Virus record (IMG/VR): IMGVR_UViG_2778261527_000003
DNA from: a virus
Taxonomy: Duplodnaviria > Heunggongvirae > Uroviricota > Caudoviricetes
DNA length: 6,552 nt
Strand: one strand, 5' to 3'
The first letter of the stretch is position 1. Every line of letters begins with the position of its first letter. A program made the position numbers and the translations under genes. Under the pieces are notes generated by a model. The model had not been told where the DNA came from and ran no database searches. It saw only the letters and a program-made list of their open reading frames with translations. Below, in pieces: positions 1 through 6,259 of the stretch.

Positions 1-564
1 TACCCGATACTTTTTCCATGCTTCCAGCAACGAGATTTCTTCCTCCGTTGCAATTTCCAGATCTGCAGCATCCTGAAGCGGCGCAATATGCTCACTGGCT
101 ACCTGCATCAGGTTGTTTTTTGTTTCTTCCGCCTCCCGGATCCGGAACAGTTTTTCTGCTTCCGTATCCTTCACCCAGGCTGTGCCGTTCCACTTCTGAA
201 ACTCCCCTTCCGGCGATAACCAGGTAACATTTTTCGGTAACGGACCGAGTTCAGAAATAAATAACGCGTCGCCGGAAGCCACGTCATAAACCGTTTTACC
301 CCGATGATCTTCAACGAGATGCCACGATGCCTCATCACTGTTGAAAACAGCCACAAAGCCAGCAGGAATATCTGGTGGTGCAATATCGGTACTGTTTGCT
401 GGCAGACCTGTATGAGGCGGAATATATGCGTCACCTTCACCAATAAATTCATTAGTTCCGGCCAGCAGATTATAAATTTTTATGGTCCGTGGTTGTTCAC
501 TCATTCTGAATGCCATTATACTCGCACCGAAAATGTCAGCCAGCTGCTTTTTGTTGACTTCCAT
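1..564 (-). CDS. tfa: In-frame fusion ORF: Nu1 codons 1-16 joined to a lambda Tfa-like tail fiber assembly protein; 3' end runs off the window start
   Basis: Own translation of the minus strand from ATG at 564..562 gives [16 protein letters not shown] (lambda Nu1 N-terminus as recalled) followed by [172 protein letters not shown], with no stop down to position 1. The second part matches lambda Tfa as recalled. Tfa's own ATG is at 516..514. Not in the ORF track because no stop lies inside the window. Confidence 0.8.
517..564 (-). pseudogene. nu1: Remnant of terminase small subunit gene Nu1 (first 16 codons only), immediately downstream of cosB
   Basis: [16 protein letters not shown] encoded at 564..517 on the minus strand; the homology stops abruptly and continues as tfa. 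Position relative to cosB R1 is as in lambda. Confidence 0.75.
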
Positions 565-584
565 TGTTCATTCCACGGACAAAA

Positions 585-713
585 ACAGAGAAAGGAAACG
601 ACAGAGGCCAAAAAGCTCGCTTTCAGCACCTGTCGTTTCCTTTCTTTTCAGGGGGTATTTTAAATAAAAACATTAAGTTACGACGAAGAAGAACGGAAAC
701 ACCTTAAACCGGA
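585..713 (-). other. cosB terminase-binding region: R1 (585-606), R2 (629-647, inverted), IHF site I1 (about 651-690), R3 (691-713)
   Basis: Three copies of the CGTTTCC(T/G)TTCT motif: R1 and R3 in one orientation, R2 inverted, with an AT-rich IHF-like segment between R2 and R3. Order cosN-R3-I1-R2-R1-Nu1 start as in lambda (recalled). Confidence 0.75.
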
Positions 714-741
714 AAATTTTCATAAATAGCGAAAACCCGCG

Positions 742-753
742 AGGTCGCCGCCC
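742..753 (-). other. cosN cohesive-end sequence (12 nt, GGGCGGCGACCT on the minus strand)
   Basis: Plus strand aggtcgccgccc at 742-753 is the reverse complement of the lambda 12-nt cohesive end; flanked by CGCGGGTTTTCGCTATT on the Nu1 side and GTTACG on the other side, as at the lambda end junction (recalled). Confidence 0.8.
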
Positions 754-952
754 CGTAACCTGTCGGATCGCCGGAAAGGACCCGCAAAATGATAATAATT
801 ATCATCTACATGTCACAACGTGCATCTACGCCATCAAACCACGTCAAATAATCAATTATGACGCAGGTATCGTATTAATTGATCCGCATCAACTTAACGT
901 AAAAACAACTTCAGACAATACAAATCAGCGACACTGAATACGGGGCAACCTC

Positions 953-1147
953 ATGTCAACGAAGAACAGAACCCGCAGAACAACAACCCGCAACATCCGC
1001 TTTCCTAACCAAATGATTGAACAAATTAACATCGCTCTTGATCAAAAAGGGTCCGGGAATTTCTCAGCCTGGGTCATTGAAGCCTGCCGTCGGAGGCTAA
1101 CGTCAGAAAAGATAGCATATACATCAATTAAAAGTGATGAAGAATGA
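953..1147 (+). CDS. ylcI: Small YlcI/YnfO-family (DUF3950) prophage protein, 64 aa, possible ribbon-helix-helix fold
   Basis: ORF MSTKNRTRRTTTRNIRFPNQMIEQINIALDQKGSGNFSAWVIEACRRRL...; basic N-terminus followed by a short strand-like segment and two helices. Family assignment from recall, not searched. Weak SD (GGGG) upstream. Confidence 0.55.
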   Translation: MSTKNRTRRTTTRNIRFPNQMIEQINIALDQKGSGNFSAWVIEACRRRLTSEKIAYTSIKSDEE

Positions 1148-1311
1148 ACATCCCGCGTTCTTCCCTCCGAACAGGACGATATTGTAAATTCACTTAATTA
1201 CGAGGGCATTGCAGTAATTGAGTTGCAGTTTTACCACTTTCCTGACAGTGACAGACTGCGTGTTGGCTCTGTCACAGGTTAAGTAGTTTGAATGATTAGC
1301 AGTTATGGTGA

Positions 1312-1518
1312 TCAGTCAACCACCAGGGAATAATCCTTCATATTATTATCGTGCTTCACCAACGCTGCCTCAATTGCCCTGAATGCTTCCAGAGACACCT
1401 TATGTTCTATACATGCAATTACAACATCAGGGTAACTCATAGAAATGGTGCTATTAAGCATATTTTTTACACGAATCAGATCCACGGAGGGATCATCAGC
1501 AGATTGTTCTTTATTCAT
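1312..1518 (-). CDS. ybcW: YbcW-like small prophage protein, 68 aa (lambda right-end orf family)
   Basis: [71 protein letters not shown]; GGAG SD 7 nt upstream of the ATG; same position relative to cos as in lambda/DLP12 (recalled). Confidence 0.7.
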
Positions 1519-1803
1519 TTTGTCGCTCCATGCGCTTGCTCTTCATCTAGCGGTTAAAATATTACTTCAAATCTTTCTGTATGAAGATTTGAGCACGTTG
1601 GCCTTACATACATCTGTCGGTTGTATTTCCCTCCAGAATGCCAGCAGGACCGCACTTTGTTACACAACCAATACTATTAATTGAAAACATTCCTAATATT
1701 TGACATAAATCATCAACAAAACACAAAGAGGTCAGACCAGATTGAAACGATAAAAACGATAATGCAAACTACGCGCCCTCGTATCACATGGAAGGTTTTA
1801 CCA

Positions 1804-2214
1804 ATGGCTCAGGTTGCCATTTTTAAAGAAATATTCGATCAAGTGCGAAAAGATTTAAACTGTGAATTGTTTTATTCTGAACTAAAACGTCACAATGTCT
1901 CACATTATATTTACTATCTAGCCACAGATAATATTCACATTGTGTTAGAAAACGATAACACTGTGTTAATAAAAGGACTTAAAAAGGTTGTAAATGTTAA
2001 ATTCTCAAGAAATACGCATCTTATAGAAACGTCCTTTGATAGGTTGAAATCAAGAGAAATCACATTTCAGCAATACAGGGAAAATCTTGCTAAAGCAGGA
2101 GTTTTCCGATGGGTTACAAATATCCACGAACATAAAAGATATTACTATACCTTTGATAATTCATTACTATTTACTGAGAGCATTCAGAACACTACACAAA
2201 TCTTTCCACGCTAA
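1804..2214 (+). CDS. ybcV: YbcV-like DUF1398 protein (putative envelope protein), 136 aa from ATG 1804
   Basis: ORF ...[51 protein letters not shown]...; GGAAGG SD 8 nt upstream of ATG 1804. The track ORF begins at TTG 1681 and an alternative ATG at 1762 lacks an SD. Sits between bor and ybcW as in lambda/DLP12. Confidence 0.7.
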
Positions 2215-2504
2215 ATCATAACGTCCGGTTTCTTCCGTGTCAGCACCGGGGCGTTGGCATAATGCAATACGTGTACGCGCTAAACCCTGTGTGCATCGTT
2301 TTTAATTATTCCCGGACACTCCCGCAGAGAAGTTCCCCGTCAGGGCTGTGGACATAGTTAATCCGGGAATACAATGACGATTCATCGCACCTGACATACA
2401 TTAATAAATATTAACAATATGAAATTTCAACTCATTGTTTAGGGTTTGTTTAATTTTCTACACATACGATTCTGCGAACTTCAAAAAGCATCGGGAATAA
2501 CACC

Positions 2505-2798
2505 ATGAAAAAAATGCTACTCGCTACTGCGCTGGCCCTGCTTATTACAGGATGTGCTCAACAGACGTTTACTGTTCAAAACAAACAGACAGCAGTAGCA
2601 CCAAAGGAAACCATCACCCATCATTTCTTCGTTTCTGGAATTGGGCAGAAGAAAACTGTCGATGCAGCCAAAATTTGTGGCGGCGCAGAAAATGTTGTTA
2701 AAACAGAAACCCAGCAAACATTCGTAAATGGATTGCTCGGTTTTATTACTTTAGGCATTTATACTCCGCTGGAAGCGCGTGTGTATTGCTCAAAATAA
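2505..2798 (+). CDS. bor: Bor lipoprotein (serum-resistance lipoprotein of lambdoid phages), 97 aa
   Basis: MKKMLLATALALLITGC... signal peptide with lipobox ITGC; full-length match to lambda Bor as recalled; opposite strand to the lysis genes as in lambda. Confidence 0.9.
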   Translation: MKKMLLATALALLITGCAQQTFTVQNKQTAVAPKETITHHFFVSGIGQKKTVDAAKICGGAENVVKTETQQTFVNGLLGFITLGIYTPLEARVYCSK

Positions 2799-2804
2799 TT
2801 GCAT

Positions 2805-2830
2805 GAGTTGCCCATCGATATGGTCAGCTC
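2805..2830. terminator. Imperfect hairpin between convergent bor and Rz (candidate bidirectional terminator)
   Basis: GAGTTGCCCAT-CGAT-ATGGTCAGCTC: 11-nt arms with 2 mismatches; lies in the 31 bp between the bor stop (2798) and the Rz stop (2830-2832). Confidence 0.4.
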
Positions 2831-3291
2831 TATCTGCACTGCTCATTAATATACTTCTGGGTTCCTTCCAGTTGTTTTTGCATAGTGATCAGCCTCTCTC
2901 TGAGGGTGAAATAATCCCGTTCAGCGGTGTCTGCCAGTCGGGGGGAGGCTGCATTATCCACGCCGGAGGCCGTGGTGGCTTCACGCACTGACTGACAGAC
3001 TGCTTTGATGTGCAACCGACGACGACCAGCGGCAACATCATCACGCAGAGCATCATTTTCAGCTTTCGCATCAGCTAACTCCTTCGTGTATTTTGCATCG
3101 AGCGCAGCAACATCACGCTGACGCATCTGCATGTCAGTAATTGCCGCGTTCGCTAGCTTCAGTTCTCTGGCATTTTTGTCGCGCTGGGCTTTGTAGGCGA
3201 TTGCGTTATCACGGTAATGATTGACCGCCCATGACAGGCTGACGATGATGCAGATAATCAGAGCGGATATAATCGCGGTTACTCTGCTCAC
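2830..3291 (-). CDS. rz: Rz inner-membrane spanin (i-spanin), 153 aa, apparent GTG start overlapping the R stop
   Basis: Translation [60 protein letters not shown]...INEQCR, lambda Rz-like; N-terminal TM segment. The codon aligned to the lambda Rz ATG is GTG at 3291..3289 (GTGA overlap with R stop) with GGGGG 7 nt upstream. The track start at 3303 is also GTG and lacks an SD. Confidence 0.8.
2889..3071 (-). CDS. rz1: Rz1 outer-membrane lipoprotein spanin (o-spanin), 60 aa, embedded in Rz in the +1 frame
   Basis: [24 protein letters not shown]...proline-rich...; lipobox VVGC; AAGGAG SD 7 nt upstream; entirely inside the Rz ORF as in lambda. Confidence 0.85.
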
Positions 3292-3785
3292 TGTTGCCCC
3301 CACAAACAGACTTCACGCTCAATCTCACGACGAGTCATCAGGCCTTTCCATTGCTTACCGCCAGCGTATGTCCAGCGACGCAGCTGATCACATGCGCCTT
3401 TGATATCGCCCTGGTTTATTTTGCGAAGAAGCGTCGATGTTCTAAAATTGCCAGCACCCACATTGTAAACGAATGAGTAAAGAGCGCCGCGCGTTGTTTC
3501 CGGTATATCGACTTTGATATACGGGTTAATTTGTCTGGCGACAGTGGCAAGGTCTTTATTCAAGAGTGCTTTGCATTCTGCTTTGGTATACGTTTTACCG
3601 AGCATGATGTCTTTTCCGGTGTGTCCGTGACATACAGTCCATACACCAACAATATCTTTGTATGGTATGTAGCTGACACCTTCCAGACCATCGTTACCAC
3701 TTGGGCCAGTGATTAACACTGATGCTATAGCAATTGCTCCGCCACCAATAGCAGCAGCAACGGCTTTTCGTAATGATGGAGGCAT
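3288..3785 (-). CDS. rrrD: SAR endolysin (T4-lysozyme-family muramidase with N-terminal signal-anchor-release domain), 165 aa, phage 21 R / RrrD type
   Basis: [56 protein letters not shown]...: Gly/Ala-rich weak TM (SAR) followed by an E-x8-D-x5-T catalytic motif; GAGGTG SD; start overlaps the holin stop (TAATG). Confidence 0.85.
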
Positions 3786-4000
3786 TATTCACCTCTCGCA
3801 GCCTTGCGCTTATCTTCTTTAATCTTGAAATAAAGGTTTGTCAGGTACGTCAGCAGGCCAAATACCAGGCTACCCAGCACACCTATTGCTGCCCACTGTG
3901 AGGGAGTGACTTTATCGAGCAGCTGTAAAAACCAGTAACCGGCACTACCTGCTGAGGTGCCATAGGCGACTCCAGTTGTTAACTTATCCATGAATTTCAT
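3785..4000 (-). CDS. essD: Class II pinholin with dual-start motif (phage 21 S / EssD type), 71 aa
   Basis: [71 protein letters not shown]: two TM segments, charged C-terminus, Met1-Lys-Phe-Met4 dual start; AGGTGG SD upstream of ATG 4000. The track ORF extends to an upstream start at 4045, not preferred. Confidence 0.85.
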
Positions 4001-4494
4001 AACCCCACCTCGCAGACAAAGCGGGTGTAAATTGAGGGAATACAACGTATCGCAAAAAAGCAGAAACGTAACTGACTCCGAGTCAGTGAATAACTCAGGT
4101 ATTGAGTTATCAGCTAATATCGAGACTCAAAAAATGGAAAAACCAGCTCGACGGCGGGTTTAAGCTGTGTGACGAAGTAACCACTCTTAACAGCATAACC
4201 AATTTTTTACGTACGTAAACCACTGAATGATATTTATGAGAATGCTACCGAGTGTTCAAAACATCACCACAAATACATAAGAAAACCTCAACAAATAACC
4301 AATAAATAATTTCCAGTGTTATTTTTAGCCGGTTTAAATTAAACAGACGAATTATAGAACCACCATAAATAACAGCCATTAATATAAATTAGCTAATAGA
4401 TTTATTTTTGTTCAAATAAGAGCCATAAATAGGTTTCGATAGAAAAAGTTCAGATAAAAATAGAGATCTACTTCACAAATTAAATGAGAAACTA

Positions 4495-4588
4495 AAACTT
4501 ACATCTTGAAATAATCACATTGATTAGATGAATATTTATCGCGCAGTGACATCATTTTTTAATAATAGTTCAAAAAAAAGGGCTCACG
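4495..4588 (+). promoter_or_regulatory. Porin promoter region with an OmpR-box-like element (about 4499-4518) and SD AAGGG at 4578-4582
   Basis: TTACATCTTGAAATAATCAC resembles ompC/ompF OmpR-binding half-sites (TTTACATTTTGAAACATCTA type, recalled). No unambiguous -35/-10 pair identified by eye. Confidence 0.35.
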
Positions 4589-5686
4589 ATGAAAAAATTA
4601 ACAGTGGCAATTTCTGCTGTAGCTGCATCAGTACTGATGGCGATGTCTGCTCAGGCAGCTGAAATTTATAATAAAGACAGTAACAAGCTGGATCTGTACG
4701 GGAAAGTTAATGCCAAGCACTACTTTTCCTCTAACGATGCAGATGATGGTGATACTACTTATGTTCGTCTTGGCTTCAAAGGCGAAACCCAAATCAACGA
4801 TCAGCTGACTGGTTTCGGTCAGTGGGAATATGAATTCAAAGGCAACCGCGCTGAATCTCAAGGTTCCTCCAAAGACAAAACCCGTCTTGCATTTGCAGGC
4901 CTGAAATTCGGTGACTACGGCTCAATCGATTACGGCCGTAACTACGGTGTAGCATACGACATCGGTGCGTGGACTGACGTTCTGCCAGAATTCGGTGGCG
5001 ATACCTGGACCCAAACAGATGTGTTCATGACTGGTCGCACCACTGGTGTTGCAACCTATCGTAACAACGACTTCTTTGGTCTGGTTGATGGTCTGAACTT
5101 TGCTGCTCAGTACCAAGGCAAAAACGATCGTAGCGATTTCGATAACTACACCGAAGGTAACGGTGATGGCTTCGGTTTCTCTGCTACCTATGAATACGAA
5201 GGATTCGGTATCGGTGCAACTTATGCGAAATCTGATCGTACCGACACTCAAGTTAATGCAGGGAAAGTTCTTCCTGAAGTATTTGCTTCCGGTAAAAATG
5301 CAGAAGTTTGGGCCGCAGGTCTGAAATATGACGCTAACAACATTTACCTGGCCACTACCTATTCTGAAACCCAGAATATGACTGTATTTGCTGATCACTT
5401 CGTTGCTAATAAAGCTCAAAACTTCGAAGCTGTTGCACAATATCAGTTCGATTTCGGTCTGCGTCCGTCCGTTGCTTACCTGCAATCTAAAGGTAAGGAT
5501 CTTGGAGTATGGGGCGATCAGGACTTAGTCAAATATGTTGATGTAGGTGCAACCTATTACTTCAACAAAAATATGTCTACTTTCGTTGATTACAAAATCA
5601 ACCTGCTTGACAAAAATGACTTCACTAAAGCACTCGGTGTAAGCACTGATGACATCGTTGCTGTAGGTCTGGTTTACCAGTTCTAA
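4589..5686 (+). CDS. nmpC: General diffusion porin of the OmpC/OmpF/PhoE family, prophage-encoded NmpC/Lc type, 365 aa precursor, intact
   Basis: Signal peptide [25 protein letters not shown]; porin-like beta-strand pattern rich in Gly/Tyr/Asp/Asn; C-terminal ...VGLVYQF with terminal Phe; located between Q and the lysis cassette on the opposite strand, as for nmpC in DLP12 and lc in PA-2 (recalled). Confidence 0.85.
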
Positions 5687-5696
5687 TCTGATTACG

Positions 5697-5736
5697 AAAA
5701 AGATATGTTGCGGGAGGCGTTGCCTCCCCAACATAT
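5697..5736 (-). terminator. Intrinsic terminator for minus-strand transcription, candidate tR' of the late operon
   Basis: On the minus strand: ATATGTTGGGGAGGC-AAC-GCCTCCCGCAACATAT (about 15-bp stem with one bulge) followed directly by CTTTTT (plus-strand AAAAA at 5697-5701). No U-tract on the plus-strand side. Confidence 0.6.
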
Positions 5737-5759
5737 AAGTGGCTCCCTCAAGCCACTTC

Positions 5760-5875
5760 CTTTAGGAGCACAACCTTGCTTCTAACTATATAAACCTTCT
5801 GTTATATATTACCCTTTATTTTTGGGGGCGTTGCAACGCCCCATTTTTAATAACTTTCAGTAAACAATTGGCATA
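5760..5875 (-). promoter_or_regulatory. Expected location of the Q-dependent late promoter (PR'-like) and Q-utilisation site
   Basis: Positional inference: immediately downstream of Q and upstream of the tR'-like terminator. Best sigma70-like candidate is TTGCAA (5831-5836) -N19- TAATAT (5806-5811) on the minus strand; spacing is non-canonical. Confidence 0.3.
5824..5850 (+). terminator. Rho-independent terminator for the porin / IpeX transcript
   Basis: GGGGCGTTGCAACGCCCC palindrome followed by ATTTTTAATAA on the plus strand; the minus-strand side is followed by CAAAAATAAAGGG, so it is unidirectional. Confidence 0.7.
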
Positions 5876-6259
5876 TTAATTAGAGTTATTAACAACGATA
5901 TCCATCTCTAACCGGATATCTAATGCCATTAACATCCCTTCAATTATGCCCTCAGCCTTCTGTAACCTTTTCCCGATATAACCATCAGAGCAGCAATGCT
6001 TACCTGCCAGTGACATGAATGTCATACCGACTACATAATAATCTACTAATAAATCGTGCAAATCGCTGTTGTTCTTTTTCAGACGGGCCATGCACCCGCA
6101 AATGATCATCGCGTCATCGTCACAACATTGCGGGCGAGATTTTACTTTTGAAGGAATTAATCCCTTAAAACCGGCGGCAATGGACGACCAGGTCACATCT
6201 TCATGATTATTAGCCGCCCACGCTCCCCAACGTTCAAGAACCATCTGAATATCACGCAT
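5876..6259 (-). CDS. quuD: Late-gene antitermination protein Q (QuuD-like), 127 aa from ATG 6259
   Basis: [60 protein letters not shown]...KHCCSD...; Cys-rich; GGAG SD 9 nt upstream of ATG 6259. The track start at 6274 is TTG. Matches DLP12 QuuD as recalled. Confidence 0.8.

Follow-up and report, generated by a model that had tools for sequence, protein, structure and literature searches.

The 6,552-nt stretch of DNA analysed here (the window) corresponds to the late region of a DLP12-type lambdoid phage; its genes and control features are collected in Table 1. On the minus strand, a fragment of an HTH/DUF968 gene precedes a QuuD-type Q antiterminator gene, which shows a distant relation to the Q21 structures 6P18 and 6JNX (E = 7.6e-8). 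The lysis genes lie further along the same strand, the ATG of the holin gene being at position 4000. Between Q and the holin gene, an intact porin ORF is carried by the plus strand, converging on Q and ending at position 5686. Its homologues in related phages and genomes bear the labels porin, OmpD or NmpC. The region 5687-5875 is probably the tail-to-tail junction between the Q gene of a DLP12/PA-2-type lambdoid prophage and a convergent porin cassette, or ‘moron’.

This arrangement is common: the 241-nt Q-porin junction was found in 2,509 of 5,426 complete E. coli genomes. E. coli phage PhiR29_1 and several chromosomes share it at 100% identity, and the quuD-nmpC junction of DLP12 in K-12 at 97.9%. 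Window positions were converted to MG1655 coordinates by MG = 580215 - window. The match in strain JB2 stops at 5811/5812, which merely reflects an IS5-family insertion.

Table 1. Genes and control features of the window, with coordinates, strand and basis of assignment
Feature	Position	Strand	Basis or remark
HTH/DUF968 gene fragment	6549-6277	minus	
Q antiterminator gene, QuuD type, 127 aa	5876-6259	minus	Pfam PF06530, E = 8.5e-54
Porin gene, intact, nmpC/lc type, 365 aa	4589-5686	plus	ORF; Pfam Porin_1, E = 1.8e-156
Porin 3′UTR, 167-nt IpeX equivalent, from stop codon to H5 T-run	5684-5850	plus	identity to K-12
H1 hairpin and minus-strand T-run	5703-5736 and 5701-5697	minus	also 5′ stem-loop of IpeX
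H2 hairpin	5737-5758	plus	8 perfect pairs; plus-strand loop CCCUCA
H3 hairpin	5762-5785	plus	
H4 hairpin, weak, AT-rich	5787-5808	plus	includes part of proposed -10
H5 hairpin and T-run, intrinsic terminator of porin/IpeX transcript	5825-5848	plus	terminator scan; -14.2 kcal/mol
Proposed late promoter TTGCAA-N19-TAATAT	TTGCAA 5836-5831, TAATAT 5811-5806	minus	not supported
Sigma-E-like promoter GAACT-N17-TCACT, lysis cassette	4545-4571	minus	back to back with porin gene start
Likely true pR′: TTTACG (4219-4214), 16-nt spacer, TATGCT (4197-4192), predicted +1 A4185	4192-4219	minus	
Palindrome TTTACGTACGTAAA	4219-4206		
tR′-like promoter-proximal hairpin and T-run of pR′ unit	4138-4162	minus	
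Holin gene essD, S21 type, first late gene	4000-3785	minus	Pfam PF04971, E = 2e-35; K-12 essD annotation
Endolysin gene	3785-3288	minus	
Rz	3303-2830	minus	
Rz1	3071-2889	minus	
bor	2505-2798	plus	

A small RNA named IpeX was reportedly described in 2006 by Castillo-Keller et al. from the nmpC/lc porin 3′UTR of DLP12 and phage PA-2. Comparison of the porin 3′UTR of the window with K-12 ipeX (MG1655 574365-574531) gave 164 identical nucleotides among 167 (98.2%). One of the three substitutions falls in H3 and the other two in the H5 loop. An earlier reading made from the letters alone (hereafter the sequence-only reading) had called this segment IpeX-like. Judged by its identity to the published copy, the plus strand is indeed the already described IpeX RNA. 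A search of the whole window against Rfam 15 returned no family in 5687-5875 at E values up to 1; since IpeX appears to be without an Rfam model, we did not count this against the identification. IpeX measures 167 nt and is produced within the porin transcript (PMC12197685). It is also treated in the review PMC5069750, and reviews attribute to it the repression of OmpC/OmpF.

Published K-12 data place the ends of this transcript. By Term-seq, porin-sense 3′ ends lie at 574367/574366, that is window 5848/5849 (Adams et al., PMC7815308, supplementary file 1), and a further one at 574476, window 5739; the same study gives a Rho-dependent termination region, antisense to quuD, at 574331. In a TRS study, the ends at 574360-574371 carry the label ‘Primary ipeX’ and those at 574471-574481 the label ‘Internal ipeX’, the id of the locus in its tables being G0-17079 (PMC10687069). 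Mapped K-12 plus-strand ends thus correspond to window 5848-5854, after H5, and to about 5739-5742, after H1. The sequence-only reading had the plus-strand RNA end at 5850 rather than at 5736-5760; the first group of ends agrees with this, but the second shows that an end near H1 exists as well.

The hairpins themselves were recovered where they had been claimed. H1 and its T-run are present, the predicted RNA hairpin energy being -20.9 kcal/mol for the minus strand and -22.9 kcal/mol for the plus strand. The tract CTTTTTCG follows H1 on the minus strand only, where the hairpin and the subsequent CUUUUUCG form a terminator-like unit. H2 stands beside it with all its pairs perfect. The palindrome GGGGCGTTGCAACGCCCC at 5825-5842 makes up H5. 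It leads into ATTTTT when read along the plus strand alone; read along the minus strand it runs into A's, so it makes no terminator in that direction. Both the terminator scan and the K-12 3′ ends agree with the plus-strand terminator that had been read at 5824-5850. The plus-strand RNA 5687-5852 also folds far better than its shuffles (z = -7.75, none of 200 as good), in line with the structured 3′UTR that had been proposed. The excess is weaker for the minus-strand RNA (z = -3.86).

We then considered conservation in a set of 182 loci representing 47 distinct sequences, in which the junction is almost invariant. In a diverged lineage (L002), about 85% identical overall, H1, H2, H3 and H5 remain hairpins with compensatory changes. 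The H1 stem is kept in this way and its T-run reads T6; the H2 loop is unchanged next to two compensatory pair changes; and H3 differs in sequence while still forming a hairpin. H4 is not kept in L002. Among all loci, the H1 T-run is reduced to TTTT-A in about 36%. The H3 allele of the window forms G-U on the plus strand and A-C on the minus strand. When G-U and A-C were counted over the hairpins, the plus strand was favoured in H3 but the minus strand in H4. With hairpins pointing both ways, these counts do not indicate which strand is under RNA selection.

On the minus strand of this same DNA, the sequence-only reading had placed the late promoter and a short terminated leader analogous to 6S RNA. 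Spelled out as a model, this pR′ would start at about 5799 and give a 6S-/StxS-like leader of about 100 nt ending at H1. Such a leader would be fully complementary to IpeX, and with Q, readthrough would proceed antisense across the porin gene to the lysis genes. Like lambda pR′, this site lies directly after Q, and the intrinsic-terminator-like H1 unit does stand about 100 nt from the proposed start, inside the 50-260 nt expected of a late unit. The letters TTGCAA and TAATAT are present as claimed, but a spacer of 19 nt between them is non-canonical. The combination scored 8.1 bits in a crude sigma-70 matrix with hand-entered base frequencies; when the 216 nt of the region were shuffled, the best site was equal or better in 81% of cases. 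A consensus promoter scan did not report it either, detecting no minus-strand promoter in the 5687-5875 region.

Conservation gives a divided picture of this site. The proposed -35 lies in the H5 loop, for which the variants TTGAGA, TTGAAA, TGGAAA and GCAAAA were found. TTG and the final A are present in most loop variants, and TAATAT is nearly invariant, which counts in favour of the site. A -10-like TATAGT (5790-5785, minus strand), at about +10 to +15 from the proposed start, could moreover serve as a sigma-dependent pause element. Against this, the L002 loop is GCAAAA without TTG, its -10 is TAATAA, missing the last T, and it has no TATAGT. Separately, in a MAFFT alignment TAATAT falls opposite TATCAT, the -10 in Sp5-like and blc-type loci (TAATAT-ATAACAG with TATCAT-ATAACAG in the latter). 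We give this match little weight as support for a -10: the shared word, ATATAACAG, is only 9 nt long, the distance to -35-like hexamers varies between 15 and 19 nt, and in L003 the segment is also similar to an internal part of StxS, which it may match instead.

Transcript data from K-12 point in the same direction as the score. No Q-sense (+) 3′ end is listed at the H1 T-run (MG1655 57450x-57452x) in the two data sets consulted, the Term-seq and TRS tables, and the claimed 6S-like terminated leader found no counterpart there; as these tables are thresholded, this is weak negative evidence. When the Q-pR′ region of Sp5 was compared with the window by blastn, no similarity was seen at 5697-5836. 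The site may represent a weak antisense promoter within IpeX. As a late promoter it is highly improbable, given a score at chance level, its degeneration in L002 and a clear orthologue of a mapped pR′ elsewhere in the window, at 4219-4138.

This orthologue was found with Sp5, the Stx2a phage of strain Sakai. By blastn, Sp5 Q corresponds to window 6259-5927 and Sp5 pR′ to 4220-4138 (76% over 83 nt, E = 4e-11), with nothing between. Conversely, the holin-porin spacer of the window matches the Q 3′ end/pR′ region of about 300 records of Stx and related phages. The Sp5 element, TTTACG-16-TATCAT, is annotated as pR′ together with its terminator in phage 06-3462. Stx phage dRNA-seq and Term-seq gave 257-258 nt from the start to the tR′ 3′ end (Sy et al., PMC7547250), the distance between the A seven nt after TATCAT and the T-run of the downstream terminator. 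We infer that the Sp5 element fits the TSS mapped in that study, whose absolute coordinates differ by genome version. Over residues 1-120, QuuD of the window has 78% identity to Sp5 Q, only the C-terminal tail being different (7 versus 24 residues), which makes a shared target promoter plausible.

In the crude sigma-70 matrix the window element reached only 8.7 bits. Of 123 metagenomic or viral loci, 93 retain it, at a distance of about 1,450 nt downstream from H1, and in L002 it recurs beyond the porin gene as TTTACG-16-TATGAT, within AT-rich DNA that is otherwise unalignable. The hairpin that follows it in the window is weakened by one substitution (-6.2 kcal/mol versus -12.0 in K-12 and 58 other loci). 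For K-12, a Q-sense 3′ end spanning 577275-577283 (+), with its peak at 577277, appears in the TRS tables under ‘essD 5′ UTR’ (PMC10687069). This end falls on the T-run of the pR′ unit after the hairpin AAACCCGCCGUCGAGCGGGUUUUUCC, 49 nt from the predicted +1.

The RNA ending at 577277 could nevertheless come from an upstream sigma-E promoter instead of TTTACG-16-TATGCT. The primers and the ‘-121 to +650’ numbering in PMC7918800, citing Rueggeberg 2015, put the TSS of the lysis cassette near window 4540, and the window has a GAACT-N17-TCACT motif that is kept in L002. The late genes might then be transcribed mainly from this host sigma-E-type promoter (about 4571-4545), with Q working on those transcripts at the 4162-4138 terminator and TTTACG-16-TATGCT surviving as a relic. 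Three points make this very unlikely. Q-family proteins load at a QBE beside a sigma-70-dependent promoter-proximal pause (10.1101/651190). The key bases of TTTACG-16-TAT(G/C)(C/A)T are intact in both lineages and in Stx phages. Finally, the 49 nt between the predicted start and the mapped 3′ end are a typical leader distance. DLP12 Q is reported to bind the lysis-cassette promoter (Toba/Rueggeberg et al., 2013), which would agree with Q acting near the holin gene and not beside its own gene.

Most likely, therefore, the true counterpart of lambda pR′-6S-tR′ and of Stx-phage pR′-StxS-tR′ is the unit at 4219-4138, where QuuD would act. The late promoter expected at the junction would most probably be found 1.6 kb from there, immediately before the lysis genes. 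This location follows from homology and 3′-end data, not from direct mapping of 5′ ends; on that footing it is the outcome, a late promoter elsewhere, that the sequence-only reading had named as refuting its own proposal. Of the genome-wide TSS tables, the Cappable-seq and SMRT-Cappable-seq supplements have no entries at 5743xx-5745xx.

What, then, would H1 do on the minus strand? It is best read as a putative terminator, with its T-run, for transcripts leaving Q. This reading draws on two loci (L003 and L004) in which a convergent blc lipocalin cassette occupies the same site and likewise begins with a Q-sense hairpin and T7 directly after Q. In such a scheme, H5 would stop porin transcription before it enters Q in antisense. 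H1 and its T-run would end non-antiterminated transcripts leaving Q and so shield the porin gene from antisense transcription. As each terminator stands beyond the other, the convergent RNAs would overlap by about 150 nt. The missing K-12 Q-sense 3′ end at H1 may reflect only a near-silent quuD.

Alternatively, H1 could serve to structure or stabilise the plus-strand RNA and have no terminator function on the minus strand, the A-run before it serving IpeX, for instance by offering Hfq or RNase E a single-stranded site. The K-12 plus-strand 3′ end right after H1 would fit a hairpin that protects or defines the RNA end there. The plus-strand fold far above chance, the common H3 polymorphism that pairs on the plus strand only, the degraded T-run in about a third of the loci and the empty Q-sense tables of K-12 are likewise consistent with it. 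We nonetheless regard this alternative as rather unlikely: the T-run is kept and even lengthened in the diverged L002, the unrelated blc cassette also starts with a Q-sense terminator, and the overall pair asymmetry between the strands favours neither.

A Q-sense RNA ending at H1, or one starting from a weak promoter at 5836-5806, would be complementary to about 100-150 nt of IpeX, so that early or late transcription of the prophage would directly control IpeX and the porin mRNA. We hold such control to be quite unlikely, and it is the sole mildly novel possibility raised by the locus. If true, the porin transcript could release IpeX when the double-stranded RNA is processed, or else induction could bring N- or Q-antiterminated readthrough in antisense that shuts off both porin and IpeX. 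Either way, the still unexplained mechanism of IpeX would be tied to the lysis-lysogeny state.

The comparison with Sp5 also delimits the porin cassette. Window 4221-5926 (1.7 kb) stands in place of a stretch of about 88 nt coding for the Q tail in Sp5. It brings another Q tail, followed by H5 as terminator, IpeX, and the porin gene together with its upstream region. Relative to Stx phages, the cassette would have replaced the Q tail and separated Q from pR′; we infer this direction of the event. The segment is present or absent between conserved flanks and possesses its own terminator, H5, at which K-12 3′ ends are mapped, as expected of a moron.

The finding is ordinary and largely already known, its plus-strand part being the known IpeX. 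Its main value lies in the correct annotation of a module that almost one in two complete E. coli genomes carries: ipeX with convergent terminators is the proper label for the Q-porin spacer, and the late promoter with its terminator belongs immediately before the holin gene. Of modest interest are the apparent insertion of the porin cassette between the gene for an antiterminator and the promoter it targets, truncating the Q tail, and an apparent Q-transcript terminator on the strand opposite a known regulatory RNA.

Compared with known systems, the plus strand matches IpeX of DLP12 and phage PA-2 (nmpC/lc) in position, from the porin stop codon to a Rho-independent terminator, and in its 167-nt length. 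In K-12, nmpC is split by IS5, whereas the porin gene of the window is intact, as in PA-2. In lambda, a constitutive promoter after Q gives a short terminated leader, and Q allows readthrough. The arrangement first read at the junction shares this general logic with the pR′-6S RNA-tR′ unit. The window Q, however, belongs to PF06530, of the Q21 type and not of the lambda type, there is no sequence similarity, and the analogue of the lambda unit lies outside 5687-5875.

The closer relative is the pR′-tR′ unit of Stx phages (933W, Sp5, H-19B; StxS RNA; PMC7547250), with which window 4219-4138 shares the -35, a spacer of 16 nt, a start region of similar sequence (TAAGAGTGGTTAC) and a hairpin followed by a T-run. 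The 190-bp junction has no homology to this unit. In Stx phages the -35 overlaps the Q 3′ end, whereas in the window a 1.7-kb porin cassette stands between the two, Q has a short, different tail, and the long StxS segment is absent. Like phage morons, the cassette is an accessory gene with its own terminator, located between conserved phage functions and oriented against the flow of phage transcription. As in convergent gene pairs with overlapping 3′UTRs, the terminators are nested and the 3′ ends would overlap. Unlike the usual morons and convergent pairs, this cassette lies between an antiterminator gene and its target promoter, and the overlap itself is a known regulatory RNA.

Transcription of IpeX, the 167-nt porin 3′UTR RNA, was considered in K-12 (MG1655). 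There nmpC is split by an IS5 only 58 nt 5′ of the stop codon, and strong IpeX 3′ ends are nonetheless present. The K-12 IpeX start must therefore lie inside IS5 or at its edge, or transcription must come from an internal promoter. On the strand antisense to quuD, Adams et al. (PMC7815308) list a region of Rho-dependent termination at MG1655 574331 (minus strand), which would serve as a backstop against porin/IpeX transcripts reading through the IpeX terminator H5.

Features of the window and their coordinates
Feature	Window	Strand	Remark
Perfect palindrome, 14 bp, TTTACGTACGTAAA	4206-4219	minus	contains -35 of likely pR′
Hairpin of pR′ unit	4138-4162	minus	
Sigma-E-like promoter, GAACT-N17-TCACT	4545-4571	minus	TSS ~4540
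IS5-to-stop stretch of nmpC	~5629-5686		MG1655 574529-574591 (L006)
Rho-dependent region	~5884		
IS009 (RF02111)	1-173	minus	cut off by window end
Long near-perfect hairpin	584-650		A and T runs on flanks

The porin start codon and the sigma-E-like promoter of the lysis cassette are arranged back to back. This promoter is kept in the diverged lineage L002, and its position fits the published RpoE-dependent start of the DLP12 lysis cassette, as deduced from primer positions (PMC7918800).

Elsewhere in the window, IS009 gave a strong Rfam match (195 bits, E = 5e-48). The hairpin at 584-650 resembles a bidirectional terminator; its sole Rfam matches, to microRNA families, were weak and at chance level.

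In the likely late promoter unit, pR′, the promoter-proximal hairpin reads GCTGG in the window instead of GCGGG. This single substitution destabilises it: the strong form, seen in 58 loci, has -12.0 kcal/mol, and the weak form, seen in 24, has -6.2 kcal/mol. The palindrome at the -35 may mark a site where a protein binds, perhaps the Q binding element; alternatively, it could be a relic left over from Q tail codons. Its counterpart in the Stx phages Sp5 and 933W, TTTACGATCGTAAA, is a perfect palindrome too, with the two central bases swapped.

In strain JB2 (L090, ~2500, corresponding to window 5811/5812), the IS5-family element ISKpn26 interrupts the IpeX region at the TAATAT motif, taken in the sequence-only reading as a candidate -10. 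Strain 2015C-4136CT1 (L091) carries the porin gene and IpeX region (88.8% identical) beside yedK and ybcM, in a locus without any Q gene, which suggests a domesticated cassette remnant. In two further loci (L003 and L004, each 2290-2480), whose Q genes are relatives of the window's Q, the place of the porin cassette is taken by one that carries the blc lipocalin gene, also convergent. The Q-sense terminator of this blc cassette, GCCAGCCTCCCCAAAGGCTGG-T7, closely resembles that of Sp5 tR′/StxS, GCCAGCCTCCCCCAGTGGCTGGC-T6.
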